A stretch of DNA of 55,079 bases from an uncultured Candidatus Saccharibacteria bacterium (GCA_964561525.1 CAZLPY010000001.1:1-55079); one strand, 5' to 3'; shown: positions 27,540-45,803, counted from the stretch's first letter. Translations and numbers: made by a program. The notes: generated by a model from the sequence alone, not told the origin.

Positions 27540-27547
27540 TGGTATGC
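27540..27547. repeat. E1 left junction core (attL): copy of the last 8 nt of tRNA-Arg
   Basis: tggtatgc is identical to 32404..32411, the reverse complement of the tRNA-Arg 3' end GCATACCA. Confidence 0.55.
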
Positions 27548-27736
27548 GAACCACCCGATTTATGGAACCAAATTGCGCTTGAACTCAGAGAGCTATCTCA
27601 AATCTTCGGCTTTGAGAATAGTCGCTTACTCGAACACGCTTATAGTTAATTACGAGGCTGTAATGGAACAAGGGCAGGCTCAACTGCATATTAATACCGA
27701 TGAGCTTAGCAGCCCTTATTGATACTTTTAACGAGA

Positions 27737-29035
27737 TCAATCATCTAGGAGGCCGACATCCTTCAAACGCTCATAGAACTCTTTGCCTTGCTGGCCAGTC
27801 TTAATTGCTTCCTCGATAACAGGTTTTTTAATGTAATGTTTCTCACCGAAAGTCATACCTACGCCGTCACTTGGTGATAACTGTCGCATAACCTCTCTGC
27901 TAGTTGCCCGCAGCTTACTTGGTAGGCGTTTTGCAGTACCCATCAATTTCCACCGCTCCGCACTTCTGCCTGTAATGCCAAACGTTAAGCGACCAGTCGT
28001 GATGGCGTAGTCCGCCCCTATTTCTTTGACCTTACTATTAAACTCCCGATTGGTTTGAATTTGATAATCTCGGGATTCGTATTGCTTAAAAATACCGATG
28101 ATTTGGTCGGCAACGGTGAGACCAAGGCCTTTGCCAACTCGGGCCAACTCTTCAGCAGCCTTATCTTTGTCACCAGACATTGCTAAACCAACCGCTTCTA
28201 GGGTCGATTTTGCCATTTCGTATAAGAGTTGGGTTTTTTCTGGATACTCGGTAGTACGTCCAGCTTGCCTGAAGGCCACGATCATTTCAGGGAGAATTTC
28301 TAGGGGAACAAGAGATGTGTAACCTTTGATTATGCCTTTTTTCCAAGGTACGGAAATTTCCGTATCTTGAATTTGCTTATAGTGCGCACTTAAAACAAAG
28401 TTCGAAAATGTTGTTTTGGCTAGCCATTCGATAAATTGATCTGAGCGAACGCCAATGAATTGAGCAATGGAGGGTAAGCTAATAAGAATGAAGCTCTTAA
28501 CATGCACGCTGTCGATTATTTCGGTGTCAACTTTTACCCATACAATTTCTTCGGGGAGAACTTGAGCCATGGAGGCATTAGTTAAAGATTCGTCGGGCAG
28601 GTCATTATTCGAGGTCTCTACCGCATCATTACCGCTAGCAACCAATTCAATGGCTTCTTCCTGTCCACCTTCCCATTCAAGAATGTGGGTAATTTTGAGT
28701 AGGAGATCTTCCTCAGTCTCTTTATCAGTATTGACTGAGATACCTTTACCGAACAACCCATCAATTACTATTCGTTTGCCCTGCACAGTATCGTAAAAAA
28801 TGCGTAGCTTAGTGCTATCAATTTCAGGGTATCTCGTCTTTATTTTGAGCTCTAGGTCTTTTAGGAGCTCCGCGAGAATGCGGCTACCCACGTAGCATGT
28901 CTGTCCTCTAAAACGCATCGTTTGAATCCTGCCACTTTCTGCCAAACGATAGACCCGCTGCCTATAAAAATACTTTGCCCCGAGCTCTTCTTCGATCTCA
29001 GTGGGGGTGAGCAAGTCAAAATGATGATCTCTCAT
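27737..29035 (-). CDS. hypothetical DNA-binding protein of E1 (N-terminal excisionase/MerR-like HTH)
   Basis: 432 aa. The N-terminus LTPTEIEEELGAKYFYRQRVYRLAESGRIQTMRFRGQTCYV resembles an excisionase-type HTH. I did not recognise the rest. Confidence 0.5.
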   Translation of the reverse strand: MRDHHFDLLTPTEIEEELGAKYFYRQRVYRLAESGRIQTMRFRGQTCYVGSRILAELLKDLELKIKTRYPEIDSTKLRIFYDTVQGKRIVIDGLFGKGISVNTDKETEEDLLLKITHILEWEGGQEEAIELVASGNDAVETSNNDLPDESLTNASMAQVLPEEIVWVKVDTEIIDSVHVKSFILISLPSIAQFIGVRSDQFIEWLAKTTFSNFVLSAHYKQIQDTEISVPWKKGIIKGYTSLVPLEILPEMIVAFRQAGRTTEYPEKTQLLYEMAKSTLEAVGLAMSGDKDKAAEELARVGKGLGLTVADQIIGIFKQYESRDYQIQTNREFNSKVKEIGADYAITTGRLTFGITGRSAERWKLMGTAKRLPSKLRATSREVMRQLSPSDGVGMTFGEKHYIKKPVIEEAIKTGQQGKEFYERLKDVGLLDD

Positions 29036-29104
29036 GATACATTCCTGTTACACTTCTAACACGTTAATGTAACAGGAGAGATGTGTCAATAGGGGTTCGG
29101 TAAA

Positions 29105-29323
29105 TCAGAATTTGACTAGTACAGACAGCTCTTTACCTAATACCTGAGAGATAAGCCAGAGCTTTTTTAACGTTGGATTTCGAAGCCCGCGCTCTAAAAG
29201 AGAAATATAAGTACGATCAACGCCAATTTCTTCAGCGAGCTTTTGCTGACTCATACCAGCTTCAGTTCGCAGCTTAGCGAGCTGAAGGCCAAATTTTACA
29301 GTAATTTCATCTAATTGCGACAT
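29105..29323 (-). CDS. XRE-family HTH transcriptional regulator
   Basis: LAKLRTEAGMSQQKLAEEIGVDRTYISLLERGLRNPTLKKL. I set the start at the ATG at 29323; the longer track ORF adds a Cys/Phe-rich junk-like leader. Confidence 0.75.
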   Translation of the reverse strand: MSQLDEITVKFGLQLAKLRTEAGMSQQKLAEEIGVDRTYISLLERGLRNPTLKKLWLISQVLGKELSVLVKF

Positions 29324-29351
29324 GTAGTCACAGAATAGAAGACAAAAACAT

Positions 29352-29369
29352 AGCTGTATGCGGACAGCT
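29352..29369. promoter_or_regulatory. candidate operator in the divergent promoter region of E1
   Basis: Perfect inverted repeat AGCTGT-N6-ACAGCT between the XRE gene and the divergent membrane-protein gene. Confidence 0.3.
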
Positions 29370-29427
29370 TGTCTCAATTTTACTGCTATGTTATTGTTCG
29401 GTTAATAGAAAATTATAGAGGATTATT

Positions 29428-30153
29428 ATGACATCATTCGCAACAATAATACTGCTTGTATCAATAATCGGGTTAATTATTGCGGTGATCAAACCATCGT
29501 TACTAGAGCGAGTATTCAAGGATCAAAAGATTGGCCGTGGAAAGGCAATACTTGCTTCTACTGCACTCTTTGTCTTGTCATTCTTTATGTTCGTATTATC
29601 GCCGAGCGATAAACAGCCCCAACCAGTAGCGCAAACACAACCCGTAACTCAATCGGTAGCAGAAACCGCTACAACTAAGCCGGTCGCCAGTACTCCTACT
29701 ACACCTCAAACAATAGAGGATAAGTTATGGCAAGCGGTTGATACCGCATTGAAGCAGCGAACAAACATTAAAGTGAGCTACGACGAAAAAGAAAAAGTAG
29801 CGTTCATCGAACACACAGATGCGGATGCATATACCGCTGAAAGCTTTGTTAAGCAAGCTTATGCAATGTTTGTCTTATTCGGCCAAGAAGTTTTCAAGAT
29901 TGACGGTGTAGAGCATGTAAATGCGCAAAATAAGACTACGTTCACAGATCAATACGGCAAAAATAGTATTGAGAGCGGGGTAACGATTGAAATGACCAAG
30001 GCAAATTTTAGTAAATTTGATTGGAAGAATCTTGAATACCAGCAAGTAAACACCCGCATACAAGCAGCTAGTGACATTTATATTATCCGACAGGCATTAG
30101 CTAACGACATCAAAGATCAATCGAAGCTCTATCTCAAATTAAGCTATCCATAA
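29428..30153 (+). CDS. membrane-anchored hypothetical protein
   Basis: N-terminal TM helices, a Pro/Thr/Gln-rich linker (PQPVAQTQPVTQ...TPTTPQT), then a globular C-terminal domain. GAGGA lies upstream of the ATG. Confidence 0.6.
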   Translation: MTSFATIILLVSIIGLIIAVIKPSLLERVFKDQKIGRGKAILASTALFVLSFFMFVLSPSDKQPQPVAQTQPVTQSVAETATTKPVASTPTTPQTIEDKLWQAVDTALKQRTNIKVSYDEKEKVAFIEHTDADAYTAESFVKQAYAMFVLFGQEVFKIDGVEHVNAQNKTTFTDQYGKNSIESGVTIEMTKANFSKFDWKNLEYQQVNTRIQAASDIYIIRQALANDIKDQSKLYLKLSYP

Positions 30154-30181
30154 GATTTAGGGGGCATGCTCTCATTTTTTA

Positions 30182-30676
30182 CTATTCAGCGAGCTCTATA
30201 CCAAATCTTTGAATCTCTTCTTCCAGTTCAGCCTCATTATAGGGAGTCTGATCAGCAGTATGAGATTTTCGCATACCGAGTTCTAATTCTAGCTTTTGAA
30301 CATGCGCTTCTAAATTAATAACTCTATGGGCTTCTAAGAGTTTTCCAGCTAATAAGGCGATGGTGCTCGCTGTCTTAGTGTCGATGTCACCCTCTTGTGT
30401 GGCCATACGGACGCGATTAATTGTGTCGGCAAGTAAATTGATTACACTATGTCCATCGGTCAATTCTAAGGGCTCAAGACGGCAAACATAGTGCGCATGA
30501 GCTATGCGCCCACCTCTCGACTGTGCCAATTTCTTATCTGCATCGCTGATTTCAGGACTATGGAGATAGCAGTAATCAGCGCCTGTCATAGCATAGGCAT
30601 TACATTGTGAACCGTCTTCTTTGACATAACTACATTTCATAACATAACTCGAGTTACTTAGTGTTGACACCCACAT
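30182..30676 (-). CDS. hypothetical protein with an N-terminal Cys/His zinc-ribbon-like motif
   Basis: MKCSYVKEDGSQCNAYAMTGADYCYLH, followed by a helical C-terminus. The start may be the ATG at 30640. Confidence 0.5.
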   Translation of the reverse strand: MWVSTLSNSSYVMKCSYVKEDGSQCNAYAMTGADYCYLHSPEISDADKKLAQSRGGRIAHAHYVCRLEPLELTDGHSVINLLADTINRVRMATQEGDIDTKTASTIALLAGKLLEAHRVINLEAHVQKLELELGMRKSHTADQTPYNEAELEEEIQRFGIELAE

Positions 30677-30790
30677 TGTAAATGAATAGGATTGATTTAT
30701 AAATTATTAGGAGAGCTTGCCAAACACCTTTTGTCTCGAGTGCCGGTAAATTTTACCTAAACAAACACCGCCACTTGGTCAGGTGTTTTT

Positions 30791-30937
30791 GTGTCCAATA
30801 AAGGAAAAAAGCGAGACTCACTAGACGAGGCGACAGTTCATCAAGAGCTGGATGCTTGGGCTGATCTTATGATTGATTTCTATTTGAGCGAACACTATGA
30901 TCAAAATAGTGAGTGTAAGGAAAATCCAAATGGCTAA
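30791..30937 (+). CDS. small ORF (48 aa) overlapping the E1 recombinase start; candidate recombinase accessory protein
   Basis: GTG start after AGGTG. Translation: VSNKGKKRDSLDEATVHQELDAWADLMIDFYLSEHYDQNSECKENPNG. Its stop overlaps the recombinase ATG by 8 nt. The LMIDFYL segment resembles LLDCWL in the E2 counterpart (43812..44162). Confidence 0.4.
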   Translation: MSNKGKKRDSLDEATVHQELDAWADLMIDFYLSEHYDQNSECKENPNG

Positions 30938-32486
30938 TGCTGTAATTTATTGCCGCGTCTCAACGAACGAGCAAGTCGTAGAGGGTAGTAGTCTTATTAC
31001 CCAGCAGAAGGCGTGTGAGGATTATGCGGACAAGAATGGGTATATTATCGTCGAGCGGTTTATTGAAGAGGGAGAGAGCGCTAAAACGGCAAATAGACCT
31101 ACATTGAAGCAATTGCTGGATTATTGCCAACGAAACCATAAGCAAATTGAAGCGCTGATTATTCCTAAAATTGACCGCCTATCAAGGGATGCCTTAGACT
31201 ATGCTACTTTACGTGTTTTCTTTAAGAAGTTGGGTATAGCACTTATTTCCGTATCCGAACCTCTTTCAGATGACCCGACAGGGCGTTTTCTAGAGACGGT
31301 ATTGTCAGGTGCATCGCAGTTGGACAATGAGATACGGACGGAGCGAGCTACCGCAGGGATGAAACAAGCCGTGCAGGAAGGCCGCTATGTGTCAAAGGCA
31401 CCAGTCGGGTATAAAAACGTTGTTTTTAATGACAAAAAGAACATCGCTCCCGATAAAGGTAAGGCAAAATTTGTTGTCAAGGCATTTGAGATGGTGGCGA
31501 GCGGTAAGTATAGCGTTGAGGAGGTACGTCGAATTTTAGAAGCAGAAGGATTTAGAGGGTATAGAGAGGCGAAGATTTCGAAATCTAGCTTTGCTACCAT
31601 GTTACGCAAAAAGACTTATATTGGGCTCATTGAAGCATTTGGCTTAAATATTACTGGATCGTACCCATTTGTGCCGATTGTTGAAGTTGCTGTGTTTGAA
31701 AAGGCGCAGAGTGTATTGAGAAAAGAGCGAGCACCTAATGCATCGCGGTATTCTAAAGAAAACCCAGATTTCCCCCTACGCGGCATCGTAATGTGCCAGA
31801 ATGGTCATAAACTTACCGCAGCATGGTCAACTGGTCGTAATGCGAAGTACGCGTTGTACAGGTGCAATATATGCAAACGGAGTAGCAAACGTAAGCTTGA
31901 CCTTGAAAACGGATTCAAGGCGTACTTAGGTGAATTTGAATATAGCCAATTAGAAACCAAGGCCTTAGAGGCGCGTATCCATGCAAAATGGAATGAAAGG
32001 AATAAAGCAGCGATTGATCATAGAATGCAGTTAAACCTTGAAATTGATCTACTCAAGCAAGATCAAAAGATCTTAGCCAAAAAGGTTGTACAGGGTATTA
32101 TTCCTGATCGAGTTGGTAAAGAAGAAGCAGAGGAAATGGAGAATCGTATTGAAGAATTGCAGTCGACGCTATCTGAAATACCTCAAATCGAGGCTGAAGC
32201 AGACAAAGTAATTGAATATGCTACACAATTTTTAACAGGGATTGGGAATCGGTGGGAAAAAGTTGATCTTAAAGTAAAGCAGCGGTTCCAAAGCTTCGCT
32301 TTTCCTGAAGGTTTTACCTATTACGACAACGGAGAATTTGGAACCACCAAAATCCCGATCATTTTTAAGCAAAAAGCATCTATTTTGGGACAAAATTCTA
32401 GTGTGGTATGCCTGAGAGGACTTGAACCTCTGACCTTCGGCTCCGCAAGCCGACGCTCTATCCAACTGAGCTACAGGCACGAATGA
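30930..32486 (+). CDS. large serine recombinase (E1 integrase); the last ~25 codons read antisense through tRNA-Arg
   Basis: MANAVIYCRVSTNEQ (catalytic Ser), IDRLSRD, a recombinase domain, a zinc ribbon (CQNGHKL...YRCNICKRS) and a coiled-coil region. The ORF crosses the junction core at 32404..32411. Confidence 0.85.
   Translation: MANAVIYCRVSTNEQVVEGSSLITQQKACEDYADKNGYIIVERFIEEGESAKTANRPTLKQLLDYCQRNHKQIEALIIPKIDRLSRDALDYATLRVFFKKLGIALISVSEPLSDDPTGRFLETVLSGASQLDNEIRTERATAGMKQAVQEGRYVSKAPVGYKNVVFNDKKNIAPDKGKAKFVVKAFEMVASGKYSVEEVRRILEAEGFRGYREAKISKSSFATMLRKKTYIGLIEAFGLNITGSYPFVPIVEVAVFEKAQSVLRKERAPNASRYSKENPDFPLRGIVMCQNGHKLTAAWSTGRNAKYALYRCNICKRSSKRKLDLENGFKAYLGEFEYSQLETKALEARIHAKWNERNKAAIDHRMQLNLEIDLLKQDQKILAKKVVQGIIPDRVGKEEAEEMENRIEELQSTLSEIPQIEAEADKVIEYATQFLTGIGNRWEKVDLKVKQRFQSFAFPEGFTYYDNGEFGTTKIPIIFKQKASILGQNSSVVCLRGLEPLTFGSASRRSIQLSYRHE
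32404..32480 (-). tRNA. tRNA-Arg (anticodon GCG), CCA encoded
   Basis: Hand-folded. Acceptor GTGCCTG/CAGGCAT (G1-U72 wobble), D arm GCTC-AGTTGGATA-GAGC, anticodon stem TCGGC/GCCGA with loop TTGCGGA, and T arm AGAGG-TTCAAGT-CCTCT. Confidence 0.85.
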
Positions 32487-32634
32487 GACCTGGACTGGCA
32501 CAAAGATGCTAGTGACTCTTCGCCCTTAGCTTGAGCGATGTTCCGGCTCATCCCCAGCCTTTTTAGTAAAAAATCTGGGTTCTTGCGCAAAACAATCGCT
32601 TTCAGGCGGCGGGCTTGAGGTCACCAAGCGTCGA

Positions 32635-32652
32635 TGGCGGAGAGGGTGGGAT
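32635..32652. repeat. E2 left junction core (attL): copy of the last 18 nt of tRNA-Ser(GCU), one mismatch
   Basis: tggcggagagggTgggat here versus tggcggagagggAgggat at 45674..45691. Confidence 0.7.
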
Positions 32653-32722
32653 AAAACTTGAACACCTTTTGGAATGGCTAGACCAGTTACGGCTGGCCTA
32701 CTCTGAAGATTAACACTTCCGT

Positions 32723-33187
32723 TTATTTTTTCGCAAGGTTTCGGATGACCTCAATTTCTGAAATTATATTGTAAATTTTGATTTCTTTTCCAAGCGTATA
32801 TTCCTTAGACGAGAAACTGTCATTATTCTTTCGGGAAGGCTTTGGGTAACCAAGTTTATCCAATGTAAACAAGTCGACAACGCGATGGTATCTCTTGTTT
32901 TTAGTATTGGAGCTAATTAGGTATATATAATCACGGCCATTTTTCTTGTTGTCATCGGGATCCGTATCCGTCTTACCTTTTTCCTGAAAGTCTCTATTTG
33001 CGTCTTCGTAACACCGGCTAGCTTCATAGTCCCCAGGTCTTTTCTCTCTTTTAAAACAATACAAGGTGTATTTGTTCTGAAAAAAACGATACAAGGCAAT
33101 TGCAGCTAAAGTAACCAACAATAACCCTAGAGTATTTTGAGTTGTCCATTCAACAAATTCTTTTATTAAGGTGATATTTAACGTCAT
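32723..33187 (-). CDS. hypothetical membrane-anchored protein
   Basis: 154 aa, one N-terminal TM helix (LGLLLVTLAAIALYRFF), Lys/Asp-rich. It is very AT-rich with no clear SD sequence. Confidence 0.45.
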   Translation of the reverse strand: MTLNITLIKEFVEWTTQNTLGLLLVTLAAIALYRFFQNKYTLYCFKREKRPGDYEASRCYEDANRDFQEKGKTDTDPDDNKKNGRDYIYLISSNTKNKRYHRVVDLFTLDKLGYPKPSRKNNDSFSSKEYTLGKEIKIYNIISEIEVIRNLAKK

Positions 33188-33225
33188 GGTTTTCTATTTG
33201 GGCGCAGTCCAAATGGCGATAACTT

Positions 33226-33444
33226 TTAAAGAATATCGAACGACTTGAGCTTTAAGACTCTAATGACGTCATAAAGCTTATCAAGGGAAGGGTTTACTTC
33301 GCCACGTTCAATCTGAGAGTAATAACTCCCGTTCATACCTGCTTGGTCGGCGACCTCGTTTTGGGTCAGTCGAGCCTTTTCGCGAGCTGCTCGTAACTTT
33401 TCACCGAGCGCTTTACGCAGATGTTCGTTATTTTTGCTGGTCAT
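33226..33444 (-). CDS. XRE-family HTH transcriptional regulator
   Basis: LRAAREKARLTQNEVADQAGMNGSYYSQIERGEVNPSLDKL. TGGTATGAT (an extended -10-like sequence, 33453..33461) lies 8 nt upstream of the ATG, so the transcript could be leaderless. Confidence 0.75.
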   Translation of the reverse strand: MTSKNNEHLRKALGEKLRAAREKARLTQNEVADQAGMNGSYYSQIERGEVNPSLDKLYDVIRVLKLKSFDIL

Positions 33445-33492
33445 ACGCCGCTATCATACCAGATTCGGCGCAAAAGGTACAGGAGTGGGTAC

Positions 33493-34491
33493 TTACTCTT
33501 TCTCGATATTCTTTAGTACAAAATACCCATCTTCGCTATGAAGCCTAAGTTTGATCTCCGTATCCATCTTTATAATTCCTCTGCCCGGAGGGAAAAGCTC
33601 AATTTCTTTTTCCTCAAGTGCGATTGACGATACCATACCGAGCACTTGCGCATAGTCTGAAGGGTTGTAGGTATCAATTTCTCTCCAATTTTGGATTGCT
33701 TGAATTGGCTTGATAGGACCAGTAGTAACATTGGCAGAGCGTAGAGTTTTATTTCTTACATCGTAGATTCCGACTACTTCTTCAAGTTGTACCGCGCCTT
33801 CGCATGCTCTTGTTTTTACTTCGTAGTTAAAGGCTAAACGATCGGGGGTAAAAAGTTTACCATCCTTATCTACTATTTGAAATTCCGTAGGACTCTCTAT
33901 GGTGACAGTGTGAGTTCCTTTAAGATGGGGAAGAAGGCTGGAATTCCATGGCTCCTTGAATAGCTCGAGACAGCTTATTCTTTCTTCTCCAGTGTTATGA
34001 ATGAGCATGATTTGGTCTAGCGGCATACCTGAAAAGTCACCTCCGTTTGCATGAGCATCCAGCTCTATGCCCTCAACAAAGTAATCTACAAGTAAGGTTT
34101 TCTGGGAAACGGAGAATTTGACTTCCTCATCAGCCGAGTCAATAAGATGAAATAGTTGAATATTCTTATGATCTGCCCACTTCACTGCCCCTTGAGTGTA
34201 GTTAGAATTAGAGATGATGGCGCCCCGCTTCGTACCCAAATCTTCCAATTTCGAAATAAAGGCTTCAATCTCATGATCCCCGACGGTAACTTTCCAGTTC
34301 TTGCACTCTATTGCCAGGAAATCGAACTCTTCTGGACTAATAACTTGCAGATCCACCTCCCGACTATCGTTGGTAATCCGGCCCTTAATTTCCACCTTTG
34401 GTAGGACCTGAGTTTCAGGGGTAGATAGCCGCTTATATAACTGCTCAGCCTTATTCTGATAACGGTCACCTTTTTCTTGCGCTTTACTCAT
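33493..34491 (-). CDS. Mrr-like restriction endonuclease domain fused to an unknown C-terminal domain
   Basis: The N-terminal PD-(D/E)xK pattern matches the Mrr catalytic domain: EVDLQVISPEEFDFLAIECKNWKVTVGDHEIEAFISKLEDLGTKRGAIISNSNYTQGA. About 200 aa of beta-rich sequence follow, with no family I recognise. Confidence 0.6.
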   Translation of the reverse strand: MSKAQEKGDRYQNKAEQLYKRLSTPETQVLPKVEIKGRITNDSREVDLQVISPEEFDFLAIECKNWKVTVGDHEIEAFISKLEDLGTKRGAIISNSNYTQGAVKWADHKNIQLFHLIDSADEEVKFSVSQKTLLVDYFVEGIELDAHANGGDFSGMPLDQIMLIHNTGEERISCLELFKEPWNSSLLPHLKGTHTVTIESPTEFQIVDKDGKLFTPDRLAFNYEVKTRACEGAVQLEEVVGIYDVRNKTLRSANVTTGPIKPIQAIQNWREIDTYNPSDYAQVLGMVSSIALEEKEIELFPPGRGIIKMDTEIKLRLHSEDGYFVLKNIEKE

Positions 34492-34502
34492 GGTAAGCTT
34501 TG

Positions 34503-35786
34503 CTATTTCAACAAGTCATCAAGCGTACAAGACAATAGCGCAGACCGATTCAGGACAATCTGCTCTGCCTGGTTTAGATTTTCTGCAGTCATACGAATGA
34601 ATTTTGTCCGGATGGTATCACCGAGCACCACCCCGTTAGATTTCCGAAGGTAGTCCTCAGTTTTCTTGGCAAACAGTGTTGCGAACAGTTTGAGTTTATT
34701 TTCTGAAGCCGGACTGGTGGTAGTTCCATTCATTTTGATCTCAATAAGCTTGGTTACATCCTGATTCGGCTCACCCGGTAAATCATCTCCTCTGATCCAA
34801 AATTCGCTCATAGGGTATATAACACGGACACGAGCAGCAGGATCATCTTCGGTGAGGTACCAGAAGACAAAGGAGAAAACATCACTCATAACGTCATGAT
34901 GAATATCTACTTTCTCTAGTTTGGTAACCGTGTAGATCTGATACTCCTTCAGCAACCGCAAGTAGCTCTCTCGCCAGCTCTGCAGCCAGTGCTCAATGTA
35001 TGACCGATCGATAAAGAGCGGGAATAAGTCCTGTTCGAGGTTTTTGTTATTGACTTTATTCATCTGTAAAGTCAGCCGGTCAAAAAGAGCCCGGGGATCT
35101 TTTACGTCAACGTTCTTGGCAATTAAGTAATCGAGATCAGGCACAATTTTCTTACCCATATACCACAAGAGATCGTAAATATCCCGGCCTTTTTCTTCGT
35201 AGTTCTCTTTTCCAACTCCACGGGTTCCGCGCAAGAAAATGGCGGCAATTTTACTGGCCATGAGTGCGGACATGTTATAGGTAACGATCACAAAAGAAAG
35301 CTGGTCGTGGTTAATCGGTACCCGCTCGGTCGCCACTTTTGCTGCCACAAAATGATTAAGGTCGAGCTTTACATGCACCTGACTCGACGGATTACCGACG
35401 GCCAACTCCTCATTGACGTGAAATCGCAGCAGCAGGCCGCGTTCGCCCATTACTTTTACGGTCAAAAACTCCTCAGTTGCACTGTATTTATCCGCAAAAT
35501 AGGTTTCAATTTCCTGTTTCAGCTCATCGAGAAACGACCGATTAACCACCTCGGTCACTTCAAAATCCAAATCAACCGACATACGGTCTAGGCCGTGGCA
35601 AATCCGTAAGGCTGAGCCGCCATACATAATCCACTTGCTATACTCTGGGTGGTGATAGATAAAATTAAGCACATAAAACTGCAGCTCTTCTTTGAGAGCA
35701 TTGCGCCGAGTTTCGGCATCTAAATCGCTATAGCTACCCAGGCTATCCAGCTTTTTCTTAAGAATAGATAGAAGCATTTCACTCAT
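34503..35786 (-). CDS. AbiEii/AbiGii-family nucleotidyltransferase toxin with a long C-terminal extension
   Basis: MYGGSALRICHGLDRMSVDLDFEV is the typical AbiEii NTase motif. At 427 aa it is longer than I recall for typical family members (roughly 250-300 aa). It overlaps the AbiEi gene by 8 nt. Confidence 0.75.
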   Translation of the reverse strand: MSEMLLSILKKKLDSLGSYSDLDAETRRNALKEELQFYVLNFIYHHPEYSKWIMYGGSALRICHGLDRMSVDLDFEVTEVVNRSFLDELKQEIETYFADKYSATEEFLTVKVMGERGLLLRFHVNEELAVGNPSSQVHVKLDLNHFVAAKVATERVPINHDQLSFVIVTYNMSALMASKIAAIFLRGTRGVGKENYEEKGRDIYDLLWYMGKKIVPDLDYLIAKNVDVKDPRALFDRLTLQMNKVNNKNLEQDLFPLFIDRSYIEHWLQSWRESYLRLLKEYQIYTVTKLEKVDIHHDVMSDVFSFVFWYLTEDDPAARVRVIYPMSEFWIRGDDLPGEPNQDVTKLIEIKMNGTTTSPASENKLKLFATLFAKKTEDYLRKSNGVVLGDTIRTKFIRMTAENLNQAEQIVLNRSALLSCTLDDLLK

Positions 35787-36399
35787 GGCGCATGTACTCC
35801 TTTACTAACTGGTTAAATTTTTTCTGTTCGGTTTCAGGCATCTCATCAAAATCAATCCGCAGCTCTTCAATCAGTGGCTGAATTTCCTCGAACTGAATAC
35901 CGCGAAACCGGCTGGTACGAAAATAGAGCAAGTCAAACAGAGCTTTGGCTGGAGAAGCGATAAAGAAATCAAACTCTCCCGACACCAGCGAAAAATCAGT
36001 AAACAGTCTCTTATCTATTGACTGATAGCTAAACGTGCCAGCCTTTGTCTGATATTCCCGAGTGACCTTTGGGGTTATAGAGGTAATGCCGTAAATAGCT
36101 TCGGTGGCCAGATTGTAGTACTGCAGGGCTGCCCATGAGCTGACATAGGAAGGAGTACGGATAATATTAGCTAAATAAAACCGGTAGGCGTTATTACTCT
36201 TGTGTTTGCTATAAAAATCAGACGAGACGTACAAACCCTTTTTTAAGGGGATTATTTCCTTACCGCGCAAAAACCGGCTGATGTAGGTATCAACGCTAGC
36301 AGAGGTCAAGCCCAACTGTTCTCCAAGCTGACGAATAGTCTGCTTAGTGAAATGGGGTAGAGTCTCAAGTTGAGTTAAGAGGTTATTACTACTTTTCAT
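35779..36399 (-). CDS. AbiEi-family antitoxin/transcriptional regulator
   Basis: The N-terminal wHTH ends in IPLKKGLYV. It lies immediately upstream of, and overlaps, the AbiEii gene. Confidence 0.65.
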   Translation of the reverse strand: MKSSNNLLTQLETLPHFTKQTIRQLGEQLGLTSASVDTYISRFLRGKEIIPLKKGLYVSSDFYSKHKSNNAYRFYLANIIRTPSYVSSWAALQYYNLATEAIYGITSITPKVTREYQTKAGTFSYQSIDKRLFTDFSLVSGEFDFFIASPAKALFDLLYFRTSRFRGIQFEEIQPLIEELRIDFDEMPETEQKKFNQLVKEYMRHE

Positions 36400-38476: not shown

Positions 38477-38514
38477 GGGGTGACCACTGTGTATAGTGGT
38501 CACCCTTCTTCATT
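38477..38514 (+). terminator. rho-independent terminator, possibly bidirectional
   Basis: GGGGTGACCACT pairs with AGTGGTCACCC, followed by TTCTTCATT. Confidence 0.55.
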
Positions 38515-39296
38515 CAAATTTCTTCCCAAATCTCACTCATCACACCCTCTGCTTTCACCGACTCCTGAGTAGCAAACCAGAGCCGTAAATCATTCAACAC
38601 GTCATTCTCCTCTTTAAGTTTCTTCACATACCGTTTGGCATAAATAAGCGTGGGCTTGTCTGGACAAACAAATAGGAGAGTTGGAAAATCGTTCTGTGTC
38701 TCGGCCTCCCAGGTACCGCTTTCGGCAAACTCAACGTACTCGCGGATGCGTTTGCGGATAGAGTACTTGGGCAGGGTAGGCGAAAAAGCCTCGAGCAAAT
38801 ATGCCACTGCCTTCTTGCCTTTTTCTTTCACCAGAACCAGATTTGGCCGGAGCTCCGAGAGGAACTGGAACTTCGAGCCATCCATCAAGATTTGTGCCTC
38901 GGTGTGAACCCACCAGACGAGCGCGTGCTGGGTCTCATTTTCCGTAAACGATAGGGCAATATCTCCCAGCAGAACCCGCTGCTGGATAAAGGCGTCGCTT
39001 CGGGTATCCTCCTTGTAGCGCTTTCTTAACTCTGACCCTTCGATTCCTAGCGACTTCACATACCTGATGCCATTTGACCCAATATAGTAAATAGCCGGCT
39101 TGGTGTTCTCGCTAAACCCCCTGGAATAGATGCGTTTGAGATATTGTTTCTCGACTAGGTCAGGGAGCCAGATGTTGATAGTTTTCTTGTTTTTGTGGCG
39201 TAAAAAGGCTTGGATCTGAATGCGGTTGAGAAAGCGGTAATAGTAAATAAGGATAAGGATTGCCTGTTGTTGTTTGGTAATTGGTGGAAGGTTCAT
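38514..39296 (-). CDS. replication-relaxation family protein
   Basis: The N-terminal wHTH pattern ITKQQQAILILIYYYRFLNRIQIQAFL is typical of the Replic_Relax family. It is adjacent to the coupling-protein-like ATPase. Confidence 0.6.
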   Translation of the reverse strand: MNLPPITKQQQAILILIYYYRFLNRIQIQAFLRHKNKKTINIWLPDLVEKQYLKRIYSRGFSENTKPAIYYIGSNGIRYVKSLGIEGSELRKRYKEDTRSDAFIQQRVLLGDIALSFTENETQHALVWWVHTEAQILMDGSKFQFLSELRPNLVLVKEKGKKAVAYLLEAFSPTLPKYSIRKRIREYVEFAESGTWEAETQNDFPTLLFVCPDKPTLIYAKRYVKKLKEENDVLNDLRLWFATQESVKAEGVMSEIWEEI

Positions 39297-39438: not shown

Positions 39439-42330
39439 CTACCTCTTAATTCGCTGCTTTTTGGCCACTGTTTTCTTGAGTGTAGCCGGCTTTGCGGGGG
39501 TTGTTTGGCTAGCTCCAGATGAGCTTGTTGCAGTGAGTAGTTGACCCATCTGCTCCTCAATTAGTTCCCTTGGTGTGGCATAGTTTTTACGTGACTGGTC
39601 AATGATCTTTTCCGCCAGCTTGCTACTGCCCGGCTCAGAGATCGGAATGGTCTCCCCACTAAAACTGTCCTCGCTTACGCCGCTTGTTACTTTCATCAAG
39701 AACCGGTAGGGCGGCAGATTAACAATTTCGCCCTTTTCTACTTCTGGTTTCATGAACGGCAAGACAAAGGCTTCATCATCCGGGCCGGTTTTGAGGGAGA
39801 TTAAGGTACCGGCATTGCCAGAAATAACGCTGGTGATTTTACTGTCATCAATTTGGGCAATACTCTGGTGAGTAGGGATAAAGAAGACATGAAACTTGCG
39901 TGACTCAGAGAAGAGGCTGGTGAAGTGCGGCGTGGCAAAGTTCTGAAACTCGTCGATGTATACAAAGAAATCCTTGCGCTTCTCTTCCGGCATCCGAGCT
40001 CTGGCATAGGTGGCCAGTTGAATAAGAGAGACGATAACGGTGCCAAAGAAAGCGCTGCGCTCTTCTCCCAACTCTCCTTTGGAGAGGTTGACCAGCACAA
40101 TCTTGCCCTTATCCATTGCTTCGGCAATATTGACCGTACTCTCACTTTGCAACAGGATTCGTCTAGATAAAGGTGAAGTGAAGAACTCACCGAGCTTGTT
40201 CGTTAAGGGAGAGATAGCTTCAGCCTGCTGCATGGAGCCGAAGAGGGCAAATTCTTTGAGCCAGAATTGCTTGAGAATGGGGTCTTTGAGCCTAGTGGCA
40301 ACCTTCGTGCGATAGTTTTTGTCGGTTAGGAGCCGCTGCACGGTAAAGAGAGAAACATCTGGCTCATCCGAAGCCAAAGCTGTAAGCACTGCGTTTCTCA
40401 AAATATGCTCCATCCGCTGACCCCAGCGCTCTTTTGGGGTGATTTTCATAAACACCGACATCACAGAGCCAGTAATCCATTCATCCTCTTCCTCTTTGTC
40501 CGCAAAATGAATACCGGGATTAAGAATATTTAAGCCAACCGGAAAGTCTTTATCGGCTGGGTTAATGTAGATCACATCTTTGCGGCGGCTTTCTGGGATT
40601 AACGTCAGCAGCCTCTTCACCAAATCGCCATGTGGGTCAATCACTACCAACCCCTTGCCTTTGGCCATATCCTGCAAAGCCATTCCGGCAATGATGGTCG
40701 ATTTACCCATACCGGTCTTACCCACAATGTAGGTATGCTGGTGGCGCTGCTCGGCAGTTAAGCCAACGGGGATCTTCTCCCCACCATAGATATTCGTGCC
40801 TACTACGACATCCAACACATCTTCGTTACGCTTTTGCGAGAGCGGAGCCGGCAGGTCGCGGCTCTTAGCGGTAACCAGACCTTCCGTTTTGGTTGTTCCG
40901 GCGTAGGGGAAGTGGTAGAGATCGGTGAGTTCGGAGGGAGTAAGAATTAAATTAGTAAAGGTGGAGAGCCGGCGCTCAATAAACCGTGACCACAGAGGGG
41001 TAATGTCTGGAGAGATTTTCTTGAAGTCAAGCGATTGGTAGGGAGTCGCAAATAGCCCCACCGAGGCCATGAAGCCATGCAAGCGCTCACGTACCGTCTC
41101 TGAATCATTCCCAATAATAAGAAGTCTTGCAGAGGCTTCAAAAAGTGATTGGTCGATCTTTTCTTTTACTTGAGCTTGAAGATCGAGTTCGTAGGTATTA
41201 AGTTCCGGTCTAGGGGCTTTAGCGTAAGAAGAGGTAGATTTAATGTGGCTATCAAAGAGATGCCACCAGAGGTTAGCAAATAACTCGGCAGTCGCAGTCA
41301 GAATGCGCGTTACGACAATTAGGATAAACATTGGCACATCGATGGCTTGCTGCAGAGGAGTTTTAAATAATTCACTAGCTAATGGTTCAGCTTTAGCAAT
41401 CTTTCGCTTAATTCTCTCAAGGTGTTTGATTACTTTCCTGTGGCTGCGATTGACCGGTGAGACTACTACCTGAAAAGCCATTTGCTCACCTTTTTGTAGT
41501 TTGGTCATGTTGCCGGCAAGGTAAGCAATCGGGTCGTGTTCAGCGAGCGTCTTTTGAGTAGTGAGCGGCAGCACGAAGTCACTGGCCAATTTCAACTCAA
41601 CGATTCTTGCTTTCTGCTCATCTGCTTTCTTTTTCTCGAGCACATAGTCTTTCGCTGGTCGGATACTCAAGCCTGGGACATATGAGAGGAGACCTTTCTC
41701 AAGGATGTGCGCATCTACTTTCGGGACGGCAATGACGTATTTAATCCCGTGCTCGCGGGTAGCCACTAATTCAAGCGAATACCGCTTCTTATGCCCGAGG
41801 AACCGGTGCACGAAACTACGCTGGGCAGCTAAGGCATGCAGCAGGGTAAAAAATTGCTCAGTAGCATAGGCCGACTTGCTGGTGGAAGTAGGCACTGTGG
41901 CTTCTAAGAATACTAACGGCTCACGCCGTGCTAGCCGCAAGCGAATAAATTGCCGGGCAAAGAAGTAAATCAGCCAGAGAGCAATGAGGCCAAGCAGTAT
42001 AAAGATGACCGGGGTAATACTGAACTGGTATAGAAAGGCAAAAACCGCCAGCTTCCAGGAGAATGGCCCGGGAAAGAAGGCGGCGACAAAGATAAAGGTT
42101 TTTTGAAAGAAGGTAAGTGCCGTGTGATTATGTAGTGCCAACAAGAGGTCTCTGGCAAATTGGCCACCGGCATCGCTGTCCGGAAACGTCTTCGCAATTT
42201 TATCCAGCAACTCTGGTGTCAGCAGCGTGTAATCGATTGAAGATTTGAGGGGTTGGATTGGTGGGATTGAGCTGGGCACGACAAGCCCTTTCTCCCTCCG
42301 TTTATCGCCTGGCAGAAATAAGCTTTCCAA
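39439..42330 (-). CDS. type IV coupling protein-like / TraD-VirD4-FtsK-HerA-type membrane ATPase
   Basis: N-terminal TM helices, Walker A IVGKTGMGKST and Walker B FFVYIDEFQNF. The track ORF begins with TTG and there is no SD sequence, so the start is uncertain. Confidence 0.65.
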   Translation of the reverse strand: MESLFLPGDKRREKGLVVPSSIPPIQPLKSSIDYTLLTPELLDKIAKTFPDSDAGGQFARDLLLALHNHTALTFFQKTFIFVAAFFPGPFSWKLAVFAFLYQFSITPVIFILLGLIALWLIYFFARQFIRLRLARREPLVFLEATVPTSTSKSAYATEQFFTLLHALAAQRSFVHRFLGHKKRYSLELVATREHGIKYVIAVPKVDAHILEKGLLSYVPGLSIRPAKDYVLEKKKADEQKARIVELKLASDFVLPLTTQKTLAEHDPIAYLAGNMTKLQKGEQMAFQVVVSPVNRSHRKVIKHLERIKRKIAKAEPLASELFKTPLQQAIDVPMFILIVVTRILTATAELFANLWWHLFDSHIKSTSSYAKAPRPELNTYELDLQAQVKEKIDQSLFEASARLLIIGNDSETVRERLHGFMASVGLFATPYQSLDFKKISPDITPLWSRFIERRLSTFTNLILTPSELTDLYHFPYAGTTKTEGLVTAKSRDLPAPLSQKRNEDVLDVVVGTNIYGGEKIPVGLTAEQRHQHTYIVGKTGMGKSTIIAGMALQDMAKGKGLVVIDPHGDLVKRLLTLIPESRRKDVIYINPADKDFPVGLNILNPGIHFADKEEEDEWITGSVMSVFMKITPKERWGQRMEHILRNAVLTALASDEPDVSLFTVQRLLTDKNYRTKVATRLKDPILKQFWLKEFALFGSMQQAEAISPLTNKLGEFFTSPLSRRILLQSESTVNIAEAMDKGKIVLVNLSKGELGEERSAFFGTVIVSLIQLATYARARMPEEKRKDFFVYIDEFQNFATPHFTSLFSESRKFHVFFIPTHQSIAQIDDSKITSVISGNAGTLISLKTGPDDEAFVLPFMKPEVEKGEIVNLPPYRFLMKVTSGVSEDSFSGETIPISEPGSSKLAEKIIDQSRKNYATPRELIEEQMGQLLTATSSSGASQTTPAKPATLKKTVAKKQRIKR

Positions 42331-42415
42331 GCGTTATTTATGGCTCTGGTATATCAGATTTACAGATAAGGTGCAATCTAATACAAAAAGGTCATTTGGG
42401 AAGAGAGATAATTCT

Positions 42416-42451
42416 ATGAAAAAGGGCGACCACAAGACTAAGTGGTCGCCC
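42416..42451 (-). terminator. rho-independent terminator
   Basis: GGGCGACCAC pairs with GTGGTCGCCC. On the minus strand it is followed by TTTTTCAT. Confidence 0.6.
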
Positions 42452-42480
42452 GAAGGTCAACAATGCAACTTCCGCTCGAA

Positions 42481-42885
42481 TTACTCCGACGGTATCTCCA
42501 TGACGTGCCCCTTGTGATTGTGTGGTCGGCAGAAAAGCCGAATCCTCGGACTTTGGAAGCAGTACAGCCTGTTCGCATTCACCATCACCACACTTCCCTC
42601 AACGGTATAGGCATAATCTTCGGTGCGATCGACGCGGAACACCTGCACGCCCAGTCTGGTTTTCGGATTATCCTCGTGATTCCCGGGAATATCCTCGGAT
42701 TTATATTCGGTTTTCCGCCTAGAACTGATGGCGAAGTTTGCCAGATGGAGCATACTAGGTTCCGAGAAAGTTCCACTGGTCAATGATTGGCAAATCTCAA
42801 GCAGAGAAGGACAGCACTCAATTACATGCTGATCCGCCTCCAGGATGATCTTGCGACCTCGTCCGAAATCAAACACGAGTTCCAT
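42481..42885 (-). CDS. hypothetical protein (134 aa)
   Basis: GAGGAG lies 6 nt upstream of the ATG, and a minus-strand terminator lies downstream. I prefer this over the overlapping plus-strand ORF 42442..42786. Confidence 0.55.
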   Translation of the reverse strand: MELVFDFGRGRKIILEADQHVIECCPSLLEICQSLTSGTFSEPSMLHLANFAISSRRKTEYKSEDIPGNHEDNPKTRLGVQVFRVDRTEDYAYTVEGSVVMVNANRLYCFQSPRIRLFCRPHNHKGHVMEIPSE

Positions 42886-42930
42886 GTTAAGCTCCTCAGC
42901 TAGAATTAGCCCAATCAGGTGTCTCTGGAG

Positions 42931-43401
42931 TTATTCTCTCCATTGCACATCTTGCTTGGGCGGTGGCTCAGAGATAGACCCTGCTGCCACGGGGCGGGAG
43001 ATGAGGGGGAAATATCGTACTTTGCCTTCCTCTTCAAACCCTTCCACGCGACACCAGGAGAGAACAGCTTTCGCATCAATTTGGGCTCGCAGCTTCTCGA
43101 GGCTGTCCTCGAATAGTTCTAGAACCGTCTCGACATCACTTTCCGAGAAGCTACAATCGAGCGGATCCTGATACCACAGCCCCCAGGTGCCTGTGCCGTT
43201 CGGTCTACGGTTATTCACCCGCACAATCCAGTGGAGTTGGTCGGGCGGAAGATGAGCGAAGCAAGTGGGTCGTGCCAACCATCGGTATTGATGATCGTGG
43301 TTGACTGGCTGAGCCGCCAAGACGCGATTTGTTTCATGCGGATACCCTTCATCGGTCAGCTGAAAGAAGGGCAGAATATATTGGCCTAGAAATTGTCTCA
43401 C
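42931..43401 (-). CDS. hypothetical protein (156 aa)
   Basis: GTG start lies 6 nt after AAGGAG. I recognised no family. Confidence 0.55.
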   Translation of the reverse strand: MRQFLGQYILPFFQLTDEGYPHETNRVLAAQPVNHDHQYRWLARPTCFAHLPPDQLHWIVRVNNRRPNGTGTWGLWYQDPLDCSFSESDVETVLELFEDSLEKLRAQIDAKAVLSWCRVEGFEEEGKVRYFPLISRPVAAGSISEPPPKQDVQWRE

Positions 43402-43811
43402 CGTCTTCTCCTTCTGGGATGCTTATCCCAGATATGTTGCGTTGAGGCTCTTGAGATCCATCTGGTCGTAGATGATCACGCAATCCTCCAAAAACGGATG
43501 ATTGTAGGCTGTCTCTGTCTGGCCCTCCCTTTCAGGGGTTTCGAATTGTTAAATCAATGCGCCTCTCACCGAAGCGAGAAGTTGTTAAGTTATATCATTT
43601 ATCAGGTTAAATGTCAATATTTTAACCTCTGGAAGGAGCTTTTGAATCTCTTAAATAGCTCTTGTTTGATCGTATTCTCCTCGTTTTCCGACGAGCAGAT
43701 AAGAGGTATTTAAGAGGGTCGGAAGCGAGTGTTCACAGTTGGAAACCACCCTCTTGACATTATCATTATAACCATAATATACTATGGATATATCAATAAT
43801 AAGGAGAGTAT

Positions 43812-44162
43812 ATGAGCACTACTCAACTGTCATATTTGGGGCCGCAAACCGCCTTTAGCGCAGAGAATGATGGTGTTCGAACTGACTTCCAGAAGCCTGC
43901 CAAACCGGACACTTTTAAAGACCTGGTAATTGACGCGGCTCGTACTTCCGATGCCTTTCGTTCGATTATTCCCACAGCCCAGGAAGAAGGCCGCATTGCT
44001 AAAACCAGGCGGGTGATGGGGGATGACGTGAAAGACCTGTCTGACGAGCAACTTGAGGTATTTCTGACTGAATTCAATTTTCTGCTTGACTGCTGGCTCG
44101 ACCAGTACGAGCAGGAAGTGTTTGACGGCAAAACTTTACAACAAATCTTGCGGGAGGGCTAA
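43812..44162 (+). CDS. hypothetical protein (116 aa) abutting the E2 recombinase; candidate accessory/directionality factor
   Basis: AAGGAGAG lies upstream of the ATG. The stop TAA abuts the recombinase ATG (TAAATG). The C-terminus LSDEQLEVFLTEFNFLLDCWLDQYEQE resembles the E1 small ORF. Confidence 0.6.
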   Translation: MSTTQLSYLGPQTAFSAENDGVRTDFQKPAKPDTFKDLVIDAARTSDAFRSIIPTAQEEGRIAKTRRVMGDDVKDLSDEQLEVFLTEFNFLLDCWLDQYEQEVFDGKTLQQILREG

Positions 44163-45803
44163 ATGGACGCACTGGGGTTAGCAAACCTGAAAGGGCAGGA
44201 AAAAGCAGTGGTATATATCCGGGTCTCCACTGAGGAGCAGGTGGAAAACTACTCGCTCGATACCCAAGCCGAAATCTGCACCAAAGAAGCCCAGAAGCGC
44301 AATATGCAGGTACTGCACGTATTTCGAGAGGAAGGAAGGTCAGCCAAGACCATCACCAAGCGTCCGATTCTCGTTGAGATGCTGGAGTTCTGCCGCAAAC
44401 ACAAGAAAGAGGTAGATGCGGTGATCGTCTATAGGTTAGATAGGGTATCACGGCAGACCACCGATTATCTCACCATTCGCAAAAAGCTCTCCGAATACGA
44501 GATTAAACTGATCTCCGCCACTGAACCAACCGGCAACAGTCCGACTGAGAAGTTTATTGAGACCATGTTGGCTGGGTTTGCTCAGATGGATAACGACGTG
44601 CGGGGTGAGCGCAGCCGCAACGGCCTCCGAGCTCGCTTTATGAATGGCTTGTGCAGTTATGTTACTCACGGCTACTTAAATCAGCATGGCTATATCGGGA
44701 AAGACCCGGAGAGTTTTGAGCAATTCAAGCAGGCCTGGGAGTTACTGGGAACGGGCACGAAAACGCTGCGGGAGATTGGAGATCTTCTTTACGACCAGGG
44801 TGTGCGGCAGAAGAAAAAGGGCGGCAAACTCCTGCCTCAGACCTTAAACCGCATTTTCCGCAATAAGTTTTATACCGGCGTGGTGGTCTCCAAGAAATAC
44901 GCTATGGAGGTCAAGGGGCAGCATCCAGCCATGATTACCGAGGAGCTGTTTTACCGCGTTCAAGCGATTCTTGACGGCCGCAACGTCAACTTGAAGCCGT
45001 CACTGACTAGACGAAGAAAAGATAACGCTGAGTTCCCGCTACGCCGAATTATCAAATGTGCCGCCTGTGGCTCCTCCTATTCGGGGGCCTGGAGCCAGGG
45101 CAAGCGCTCTCGCTATGCTTACTATTTCTGTGCCAAACGCTGCACAGAGTGCGGCTCCAAAGGTGTGGATGAGATGCAGCAAGAAGCGTACAAGGAGCTG
45201 GTAAAGATCAAAATTAACCCTAAGGCCATCACCCTCTTTAACGCTTGGCTGCGCCAGAAATACTTCCAGCGCATCAGCGACCTGCAGAAACGGCTAGACG
45301 ATGCCGATGAGGAGCTCAAGAGCCTCTATGAGCTGCGCCAAACCCTTATTGAGAAGAATCTGAAGGGTATTTATTCGGACGAGATCTTTAAGGAGCAGAA
45401 CCGCCATATTGAAGGTAAAATAAAAAATATCCAGTTCACCAAAAATGACGAGGTACTGGACAAGTACAACCTGGAAAAAATTACTACATTCGTCGAAATA
45501 AAACTCTCAGATGTGCCCCTAACCTTCTCACATTCAACGCTCAATGAGGTTAGGGTACTGCTGTGTTCAATATTCCCAGAAGGCATGCCATATGGTCGAA
45601 ATGGCTTTGTGAACACGCCGCCCAGCCCGTTTTATCAGGTTTTTCTGGGCTTTCCGCATACGGCTATCCCTTCTGGCGGAGAGGGAGGGATTCGAACCCT
45701 CGCTACGTACAAAGTACGTACTACAGGTTTAGCAAACCCGCCCCTTGAGCCACTTGGGTACCTCTCCATGCTTCGAATATTTTATCACGTAACAGTCAAT
45801 TGA
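44163..45803 (+). CDS. large serine recombinase (E2 integrase); the last ~40 codons read antisense through tRNA-Ser
   Basis: KAVVYIRVSTEEQ (catalytic Ser), LDRVSRQ, a zinc ribbon (CAACGSSYSG...YFCAKRCTECGS) and a coiled coil. It is homologous to the E1 recombinase. Confidence 0.85.
   Translation: MDALGLANLKGQEKAVVYIRVSTEEQVENYSLDTQAEICTKEAQKRNMQVLHVFREEGRSAKTITKRPILVEMLEFCRKHKKEVDAVIVYRLDRVSRQTTDYLTIRKKLSEYEIKLISATEPTGNSPTEKFIETMLAGFAQMDNDVRGERSRNGLRARFMNGLCSYVTHGYLNQHGYIGKDPESFEQFKQAWELLGTGTKTLREIGDLLYDQGVRQKKKGGKLLPQTLNRIFRNKFYTGVVVSKKYAMEVKGQHPAMITEELFYRVQAILDGRNVNLKPSLTRRRKDNAEFPLRRIIKCAACGSSYSGAWSQGKRSRYAYYFCAKRCTECGSKGVDEMQQEAYKELVKIKINPKAITLFNAWLRQKYFQRISDLQKRLDDADEELKSLYELRQTLIEKNLKGIYSDEIFKEQNRHIEGKIKNIQFTKNDEVLDKYNLEKITTFVEIKLSDVPLTFSHSTLNEVRVLLCSIFPEGMPYGRNGFVNTPPSPFYQVFLGFPHTAIPSGGEGGIRTLATYKVRTTGLANPPLEPLGYLSMLRIFYHVTVN
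45674..45767 (-). tRNA. tRNA-Ser (anticodon GCU), CCA encoded
   Basis: Hand-folded. Acceptor GGAGAGG/CCTCTCC, anticodon stem CGGGT/ACCTG with loop TTGCTAA, a long variable arm, and T arm GAGGG-TTCGAAT-CCCTC. Confidence 0.85.

Follow-up and report, generated by a model that had tools for sequence, protein, structure and literature searches.

Two probable serine-recombinase elements in neighbouring tRNA genes, with the attachment site inside the integrase gene

Two segments of a 55,079-nt stretch of DNA (CAZLPY010000001.1:1-55079; the whole stretch analyzed is hereafter called the window), E1 (27548-32411; 4.9 kb) and E2 (32653-45691; 13 kb), are very probably two independent integrative elements, each of which was put into the 3' end of a different tRNA gene by its own large serine recombinase (LSR). 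The original prediction, made from the sequence alone, had read this locus as two separate LSR-bearing elements in adjacent tRNA genes, from which both the junctions and the empty site could be reconstructed, and this core reading was upheld by the corresponding locus of a close relative (contig L061), by the relatives of E2, and by the reading frame that is restored when the ends of E1 are joined. The anatomy of the junctions can be read in the window, an empty site is present in the relative, related elements carry the same split of the integrase gene, and one related element occurs as a free circle with an intact integrase gene. The attachment site (attP) falls within the 3'-terminal part of the integrase gene, which is complete in the free circle and ends there in a C-terminal helix; as a consequence, integration swaps the tail of the integrase.

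The two target genes, tRNA-Arg(GCG) (32404..32480) and tRNA-Ser(GCU) (45674..45767), lie on the minus strand and were called by ARAGORN and by Rfam (70.9 and 56.4 bits, respectively); together with the domain matches of the open reading frames (ORFs), these calls confirmed that an LSR gene converges on the 3' end of each tRNA gene. In its integrated form, LSR1 (30897..32486, plus strand; 529 aa, or 518 aa from Met12 according to NCBI) ends in 25 codons that are antisense to tRNA-Arg, while LSR2 (44163..45803, plus strand; 546 aa) ends in about 43 codons that are antisense to tRNA-Ser and its promoter region. Both proteins match the Resolvase (PF00239; E=6.6e-33 for LSR1 and E=9.6e-33 for LSR2) and Recombinase (PF07508) domains, and LSR2 scores 24.7 bits (cut-off 25.3) against Zn_ribbon_recom (PF13408), a domain that is also matched in many homologues. 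The RVST motif is invariant across 32 homologues, the PDB structures matched by the catalytic domains are those of the TP901-1 integrase, TnpX and resolvases, and the nearest annotated phage enzyme is the integrase of Listeria phage A118 (~30% identity). An AlphaFold2 (AF2) model of the LSR1 homologue P0159 shows beta strands (residues 299-327) followed by long paired helices (346-421). No tyrosine recombinase domain was found among the E1 and E2 ORFs scanned, which include serine-type recombinases only. LSR1 and LSR2 are homologous (29% identity over 486 aa), their similarity ending about 40 nt short of each tRNA gene. As for the proposal that E1 and E2 are "sister" elements, the homology of the recombinases stands, but with 29% identity they fall into different clades and the cargo of the two elements is unrelated; what E1 and E2 have in common is a module made of a small ORF followed by the LSR gene.

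At the E2 junction, the last 18 nt of tRNA-Ser (TGGCGGAGAGGGAGGGAT, 45674-45691; the attR2 core) recur with one mismatch as TGGCGGAGAGGGTGGGAT at 32635..32652 (the attL2 core), which corresponds to the displaced 3' end of tRNA-Ser. Allowing up to three mismatches, 3 matches to TGGCGGAGAGGGAGGGAT were observed in the window against 0.04 in shuffled sequences, the third being the 3' end of tRNA-Ser(UGA), so that the repeat from which this junction had been predicted is beyond chance. The mismatch, at position 13, is synonymous in the LSR2 frame (GGA/GGT, Gly) and would break the T stem in the tRNA, which would place the crossover within positions 1-12, probably at the GG of TGGCGGAG. Directly beyond the repeat lies the displaced 3' end of the LSR2 gene (32653..32713, plus strand), reading …I KLEHLLEWLDQLRLAYSED and a stop codon; it is in frame once the ends of E2 are joined, giving a 529-aa junction ORF, and it resembles both the rare non-tRNA tails of homologues and the tail found at the left end of the neighbouring element in locus L088. 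It should be noted that TGGCGGAGAGGGTGGGAT is identical to the tRNA-Ser(UGA) 3' end of the close relative (L061 7508-7525), the window's own tRNA-Ser(UGA) being one base off; the E2 attachment site could thus fit other tRNA-Ser genes.

The relatives of E2 bear out this junction. LSR2 has about 1,000 homologues at E<=1e-30, and in the closest ones (75-79% identical; seven loci from independent samples) the LSR gene in every case overlaps a tRNA-Ser(GCU) on the opposite strand, with the same arrangement (7/7). In one of these loci (L068), 17 nt of the tRNA end (TGGCGGAGAGGCAGGGA) are found at 2793-2809 and again at 11509-11525, where they bound an 8.7-kb element that has the same backbone as E2 (a 72-aa helix-turn-helix (HTH) regulator, Replic_Relax, the small LSR-abutting ORF and the LSR) and differs in its cargo alone. 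A more distant homologue (54-56% identical) abuts tRNA-Phe. Among the 120 best LSR2 homologues, 67 are long enough to be scored for the antisense T-loop peptide G(I/T)RT, and 65 of them carry it (in 56, at an offset of 42 from a conserved anchor motif), which indicates that the LSR2 family, as sampled, is almost always integrated at a tRNA 3' end and in one register. Scans of IMG/VR with LSR1, LSR2 and the LSR2 alignment returned one contig only. At L088 (9716-21220), two LSR elements lie in tandem at a single tRNA-Leu(CAG): the frame of the outer LSR (P0145) continues past a 6-nt core, TGGTGC (11513-11518), and enters the inner element at its left end; this inner element carries an N6_N4 methyltransferase and a ResIII helicase. 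The capture of neighbouring tRNA genes in tandem had been called unusual, a judgement that L088 does not favor, as multiple occupancy may not be exceptional in this family.

For E1, the junction had been drawn from an 8-nt repeat, TGGTATGC (antisense of GCAUACCA), which represents the last 8 nt of tRNA-Arg (32404-32411; the attR1 core) and their displaced copy at 27540..27547 (the attL1 core). Chance predicts 1.5 matches to this octamer in the window and 4 are present, so that the repeat is without statistical weight when taken alone; the junction was validated instead by the restored integrase frame, by the related loci L077 and L078, and by the free circle. When 32411 is joined to 27548, a 538-aa ORF results that ends in …SSVVC-EPPDLWNQIALELRELSQIF…, the C-terminal helix motif of the non-fused homologues (LWNQ..EL..L), and it is because the joined ends restore this conserved C-terminus that we accept the position of the junction. 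The displaced 3' end of the LSR1 gene (27548..27649, plus strand) consists of 33 codons (EPPDLWNQIALELRELSQIFGFENSRLLEHAYS) and a stop, in frame with 30897..32411. The helix motif has its only match in the six frames of the window at the E1 left end, and a hidden Markov model (HMM) for which the tails of non-fused homologues were the sole input has its best match in the window at the same predicted end (E=0.027). An inverted copy of TGGTATGC is present at 27441-27448, 92 nt left of the E1 junction and within the start of a 187-aa host ORF, probably by chance.

The same split is seen in other members of the LSR1 family. LSR1, like LSR2, has about 1,000 homologues at E<=1e-30. The C-termini of LSR1 homologues, which are ~40% identical, are of two kinds: an antisense-tRNA peptide (G[FLIV]EP…SQLSY) or the helix motif (L/F)WNQ…EL..L..I(L/F). 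In two integrated relatives, the tail HMM matches the far end of the element (L077, E=3e-10; L078, E=3e-9). The element in L077 is located at tRNA-Ala(UGC), with the 7-nt core GTGGACC and a terminator just outside attL, and that in L078 at a tRNA-like gene, with the core TGGTGGAC. This latter target (11477-11550) resembles tRNA-Val(GAC), was called neither by ARAGORN nor by the Rfam tRNA model, and may be a degenerate or unusual tRNA. In L079 (370-3109), an LSR1 homologue converges on the tmRNA gene and is adjoined by a small-terminase (Terminase_2) gene, suggesting that some members of the family are phage-borne.

A third state is provided by P0159, which is encoded on circularly permuted contigs from many samples. 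In five of these (L081-L085), the contig ends overlap by 141, 141, 127, 127 and 30 nt, the two overlaps of 141 nt coming from k141 assemblies, and the overlaps define a 7,754-bp circle. The circle carries an intact 525-aa LSR gene, together with Peptidase_S49 and DUF4325 genes, and was recovered in many metagenome assemblies (37 index blocks); its sequence across the core (TCTATGGTGGACCTAAGTTTACCAATTTGGAACCAA; P' arm) matches the attL arm of L077. The circle could be an element that has excised, or else a small replicon of plasmid or phage type. Taken together, the circle, L077 and L078 present attP, attL and attR for the E1-type family. A further intact-tail homologue, on the 50-kb contig L090, stops at the contig end and may be either free or integrated.

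The attachment site of each element carries a short copy of the tRNA 3' end, so that the tRNA gene is rebuilt upon integration, while the 3' end that the host gene had before is displaced to the far boundary of the element. The copy comprises 8 nt in E1 (4 nt of the acceptor stem, the discriminator base and CCA) and 18 nt in E2 (from CCA to the T stem). Recombination would be expected to proceed, by analogy with other serine integrases, through a double-strand exchange at a central dinucleotide. The blocks of identity are short (7-8 nt for E1-type elements, 17-18 nt for E2-type elements). Once an element is integrated, the final ~20-33 codons of its integrase gene are found at the other end of the element, and the integrase ends in antisense-tRNA codons. 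In the AF2 model of P0159, the attachment-site stretch is predicted to form a low-confidence linker (490-498) that precedes a terminal helix (501-524). This helix is conserved at the protein level among the homologues, even up to ~50 residues past the S..V(D) core position, which is too far for a constraint on att-site DNA and argues for a function of the protein.

It is therefore conceivable that the swapped tail matters to the enzyme: exchanging it may alter integrase activity between the free and the integrated state. We put forward, tentatively, a state switch in which the integrase bears the helix when the element is free and lacks it when integrated, and in which this difference sets or biases directionality (integration-competent versus silent or excision-biased), alongside the small ORF upstream of the LSR gene. 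In E1, this ORF (48 aa; 30791..30937, plus strand) overlaps the start of LSR1 and has counterparts beside LSRs of both clades. In E2, it (116 aa; 43812..44162, plus strand) abuts the start of LSR2; it is 62% identical over its C-terminal 64 residues in L068 and L074, and 49% identical in L088. The motif LSDE..F..EL..L(L/I)D.(Y/W)L is also found in the ORFs that precede the LSRs of L077, L079, L081, L068, L074 and L088. No family match was obtained for the small ORFs in Pfam (searched with 43812-44162) or in PHROGs (searched with both). The upstream ORF is a candidate directionality factor or regulator.

The insertions could also be real and both elements now be fixed, immobile remnants, in which case the split of the tail would be incidental and of no regulatory meaning. 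We consider this possible, if doubtful. For this genome, no evidence of excision was found; the E2-type tail is not conserved, that of L068 stopping after 4 codons; and the tails read through from the tRNA genes are obviously accidental sequences. Set against this, the LSR frames, the displaced tails and the small upstream ORFs are all intact in both elements, the E1-type helix is conserved in protein at a distance that att-site DNA constraint does not reach, and free circles of a related element are abundant.

That E1 and E2 entered a pre-existing tRNA locus is best seen in the close relative. When metagenome contigs were scanned with a 69-nt piece of tRNA-Arg, a single locus was found, on a 1.04-Mb contig (L061/L062), where the order is a terminator, 27 nt, tRNA-Arg, 136 nt, tRNA-Ser(GCU) and a promoter-like TTGCTA-18-TAGAAT, with neither element present. 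Removal of E1 and E2 in silico had been predicted to leave a compact unit of promoter, tRNA-Ser, spacer, tRNA-Arg and terminator, and such a unit exists in L061, which is the only close relative found and supplies the insertion-free tRNA-Ser/tRNA-Arg locus that the original prediction had proposed to look for in related genomes. The flanks of the window are syntenic with L061/L062 (TrmB 83-84%, GalU 76%, a 551-aa protein 60% and ComF 59% identity). In the window, the intrinsic terminator of the unit (27499..27529, minus strand; a 12-pair stem and then a T run) is now separated from tRNA-Arg by E1. A terminator scan recovered (12 pairs) the strong minus-strand terminator that had been placed about 10 nt from the repeat at 27540..27547. 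The promoter-like TTGCTC-17-TAAAAT upstream of tRNA-Ser (45779..45807, minus strand), read by eye, is less firm: it falls below the threshold of the promoter scanner, but the similar sequence before tRNA-Ser in L061 is placed in the same way. Between tRNA-Arg and the former 3' end of tRNA-Ser, the host spacer (32481..32634) measures 154 nt against 136 nt in L061, and its conservation is confined to the first ~10 nt; spacer homology was considered as additional evidence and set aside as too weak to help.

This relative also bears on the idea that E1, tRNA-Arg and E2 arrived jointly as one composite island with its own tRNA-Arg, the short E1 repeat being a chance match. Mobile elements often carry tRNA genes, and the E1 repeat taken alone would allow such a reading. 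We nevertheless regard it as very improbable: tRNA-Ser and tRNA-Arg lie side by side and free of elements in L061, where the uninterrupted tRNA-Arg is 100% identical to that of the window over 84 nt, the E1 junction restores a conserved reading frame, and the two elements differ both in the clades of their LSRs and in G+C content, which in E1 (42.2%) is under that of every 4.9-kb flank window (47.2-51.0%) and in E2 (47.4%) is at the lower edge of the flanks. A chimeric contig, joined during assembly at tRNA sequences common to the host and to separate plasmid-like elements, is likewise scarcely credible: the window is a metagenome-type contig and the relative's contigs break inside tRNA-Arg (L063), indicating that assemblers struggle at this locus, but host sequence is syntenic with L062 on both sides of both elements and the exact attL/attR anatomy recurs in the independent assemblies L068, L077, L078 and L088.

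Several points weigh against two independent insertions of this kind, and against the tail switch that may accompany them. The empty site was seen in a relative and the circle in a related element, and the evidence consists of assembled contigs. L061/L062 is a single close relative in which the tRNA unit is inverted with respect to the syntenic flanks (window 27491-45807 versus L062 8194-8760), so the history of the locus is more complicated than two clean insertions. The 8-nt E1 repeat lacks significance by itself, and the window's match to the tail HMM (E=0.027) is weak. The E2-type tail is not conserved in L068, where the junction ORF ends in GGEAGKTVP and a stop. No directionality factor was identified by homology. 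Finally, the dyad symmetry that had been proposed for the reconstructed att sites did not hold up: the arms are present, but the sites do not exceed shuffled sequences, 231 of 300 shuffles reaching the observed score for attP1 and 46 of 300 for attP2.

The comparison could not be widened beyond this relative: TrmB homologues with at most 55% identity are not syntenic, leaving one genome to compare. A scan of genome contigs with ComF gave a best match of 37% identity and no close relative, and an exact-protein look-up of two flank proteins yielded nothing useful. Between the tRNA unit and TrmB, the window has a 191/219-aa ORF where L062 has 116-aa and 135-aa GerE-type genes. The anticodon of tRNA-Arg is GCG both in the window (32404-32480) and in L061 (3808-3884). 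In most bacteria, CGN codons are decoded by a tRNA with an ACG (inosine) anticodon, and the GCG anticodon may be a hint on decoding in this lineage. The window also contains five successive T4SS_pilin (PF18895) genes at 50881-53668, and the same cluster is found in the relative (L062 14177-16816). The original prediction had spoken of a genome of the candidate phyla radiation (CPR) type, which is plausible and indirectly supported by the 1.04-Mb contig of the relative, the T4SS_pilin cluster, and homologues that their sources name CPR2, Parcubacteria or Patescibacteria.

Apart from the recombination module, E1 encodes a 432-aa protein without a family match (27737..29035, minus strand), a 90-aa HTH_3 (Cro/CI-type) regulator (29105..29377, minus strand; E=4e-17), a 241-aa protein of unknown type found by ORF scan (29428..30153, plus strand), and a 164-aa protein with a weak small-terminase-like match (30182..30676, minus strand; phrog_10899, E=9e-4). 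Searches of this cargo against PHROGs and PADLOC gave no useful annotation. The backbone of E2 includes a 72-aa HTH regulator (33226..33444, minus strand), which is 72-74% identical in L068 and L074, and a 260-aa Replic_Relax protein (38514..39296, minus strand; E=1.8e-11), which is kept in L068, L074, L088 and L090. Domain matches further identified a 332-aa Mrr_cat/NERD-type nuclease (33493..34491, minus strand) and a 963-aa, coupling-protein-like ATPase related to TraG/VirD4/TrwB/HerA (39439..42330, minus strand), and domain matches together with a defence scan identified an AbiE system on the minus strand (34503..36399), made up of the AbiEii toxin (34503-35786) and the AbiEi antitoxin (35779-36399). 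The Mrr-like gene was compared with the 323/329-aa genes at the same position in L068/L074 and is not their homologue. From its gene content, E2 may be a mobilizable element, with Replic_Relax and the coupling-protein-like ATPase as its putative mobilization genes and with AbiE and the nuclease as cargo.

Beyond this locus, the signature of an antisense T-loop in 65 of 67 E2-type proteins indicates that both families widely target tRNA or tmRNA 3' ends. It is well supported that two related LSR families, abundant in metagenome contigs of CPR/Patescibacteria type, occupy the niche at tRNA and tmRNA 3' ends that textbooks give to tyrosine integrases. Tools that search for tRNA islands through tyrosine integrases only would miss such elements in small-genome bacteria, whose mobile elements are poorly charted. 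For several new serine integrases, the elements described here provide the actual sequences of attP, attB, attL and attR, and the attB of these enzymes is the conserved 3' end of a tRNA gene, which makes landing sites predictable. An antisense-tRNA peptide at the protein end is moreover a signature that can be read from protein alone, so that the integration state could be scored for thousands of metagenomic homologues. If the proposed switch is true, the splitting of the C-terminus on integration would be a possible new control of serine-integrase directionality.

Islands in tRNA genes are assumed to come with tyrosine integrases (Hudson et al., 2015; PMC4383910). E1 and E2 share with Islander-type islands and prophages (Williams, 2002; Hudson et al., 2015, PMC4383910) integration at tRNA/tmRNA 3' ends, a gene rebuilt from the attP copy, a displaced repeat at the far end and the occurrence of tandem arrays, and they show the Islander signature, in which the integrase gene is enclosed between an intact tRNA gene and, at the opposite end, a displaced fragment of its 3' end. 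They differ in that the enzyme is a serine recombinase and in their shorter repeats (7-8 nt for E1-type and 17-18 nt for E2-type elements).

The closest precedent, compared by description, are the ssrA islands of Dehalococcoides (McMurdie et al., 2011; PMC3146451), in which a serine integrase of ~540 aa, DsiB, lies beside the tmRNA 3' end and a 20-bp repeat marks the far end. These islands occur in tandem at one site with variable cargo, are regarded as integrative mobilizable elements, and have a six-gene integration module that includes the small serine recombinase DsiA and RecF-, ParB- and Mom-like genes (PMC3146451). As in E1 and E2, the LSR gene runs towards the 3' end of the RNA gene that is targeted and the far-end repeat is short, and L079 is likewise at tmRNA. 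In contrast, the ssrA islands target ssrA only, whereas the elements described here use ordinary tRNA genes (Arg, Ser, Ala, Phe and Leu); no DsiA-, RecF-, ParB- or Mom-like genes were seen in the domain scans of E1 and E2, the hosts here are CPR-like, and the attachment site lies inside the integrase reading frame.

The LSRs of phages A118/LI, TP901-1, Bxb1 and phiC31 resemble LSR1 and LSR2 in having Resolvase, Recombinase and zinc ribbon domains with a coiled coil, and in the short identity of their att sites. Serine-recombinase elements have been described to insert within protein genes and to disrupt them (PMC5704250). Phage LSRs and the integrative mobilizable elements of Firmicutes integrate in protein-coding genes or at intergenic sites, often disruptively, whereas E1 and E2 lie in tRNA genes; the text of the LSR survey by Durrant et al. 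makes no mention of tRNA. No description of tRNA-targeting CPR serine recombinases, or of an attP within a serine integrase gene, was found in a literature search that took in neither subscription journals nor the TIGER database. The LSR1 and LSR2 families, although large, are thus apparently undescribed, a prior cataloguing being possible. An attP within the integrase gene is a feature of SSV1-type integrases, tyrosine recombinases from archaeal viruses, whose gene is divided between the two provirus ends when the virus integrates into a tRNA gene; this split, near the 5' part, inactivates it. In the elements described here, the displacement is limited to the last 20-33 codons and leaves the catalytic and DNA-binding domains whole.

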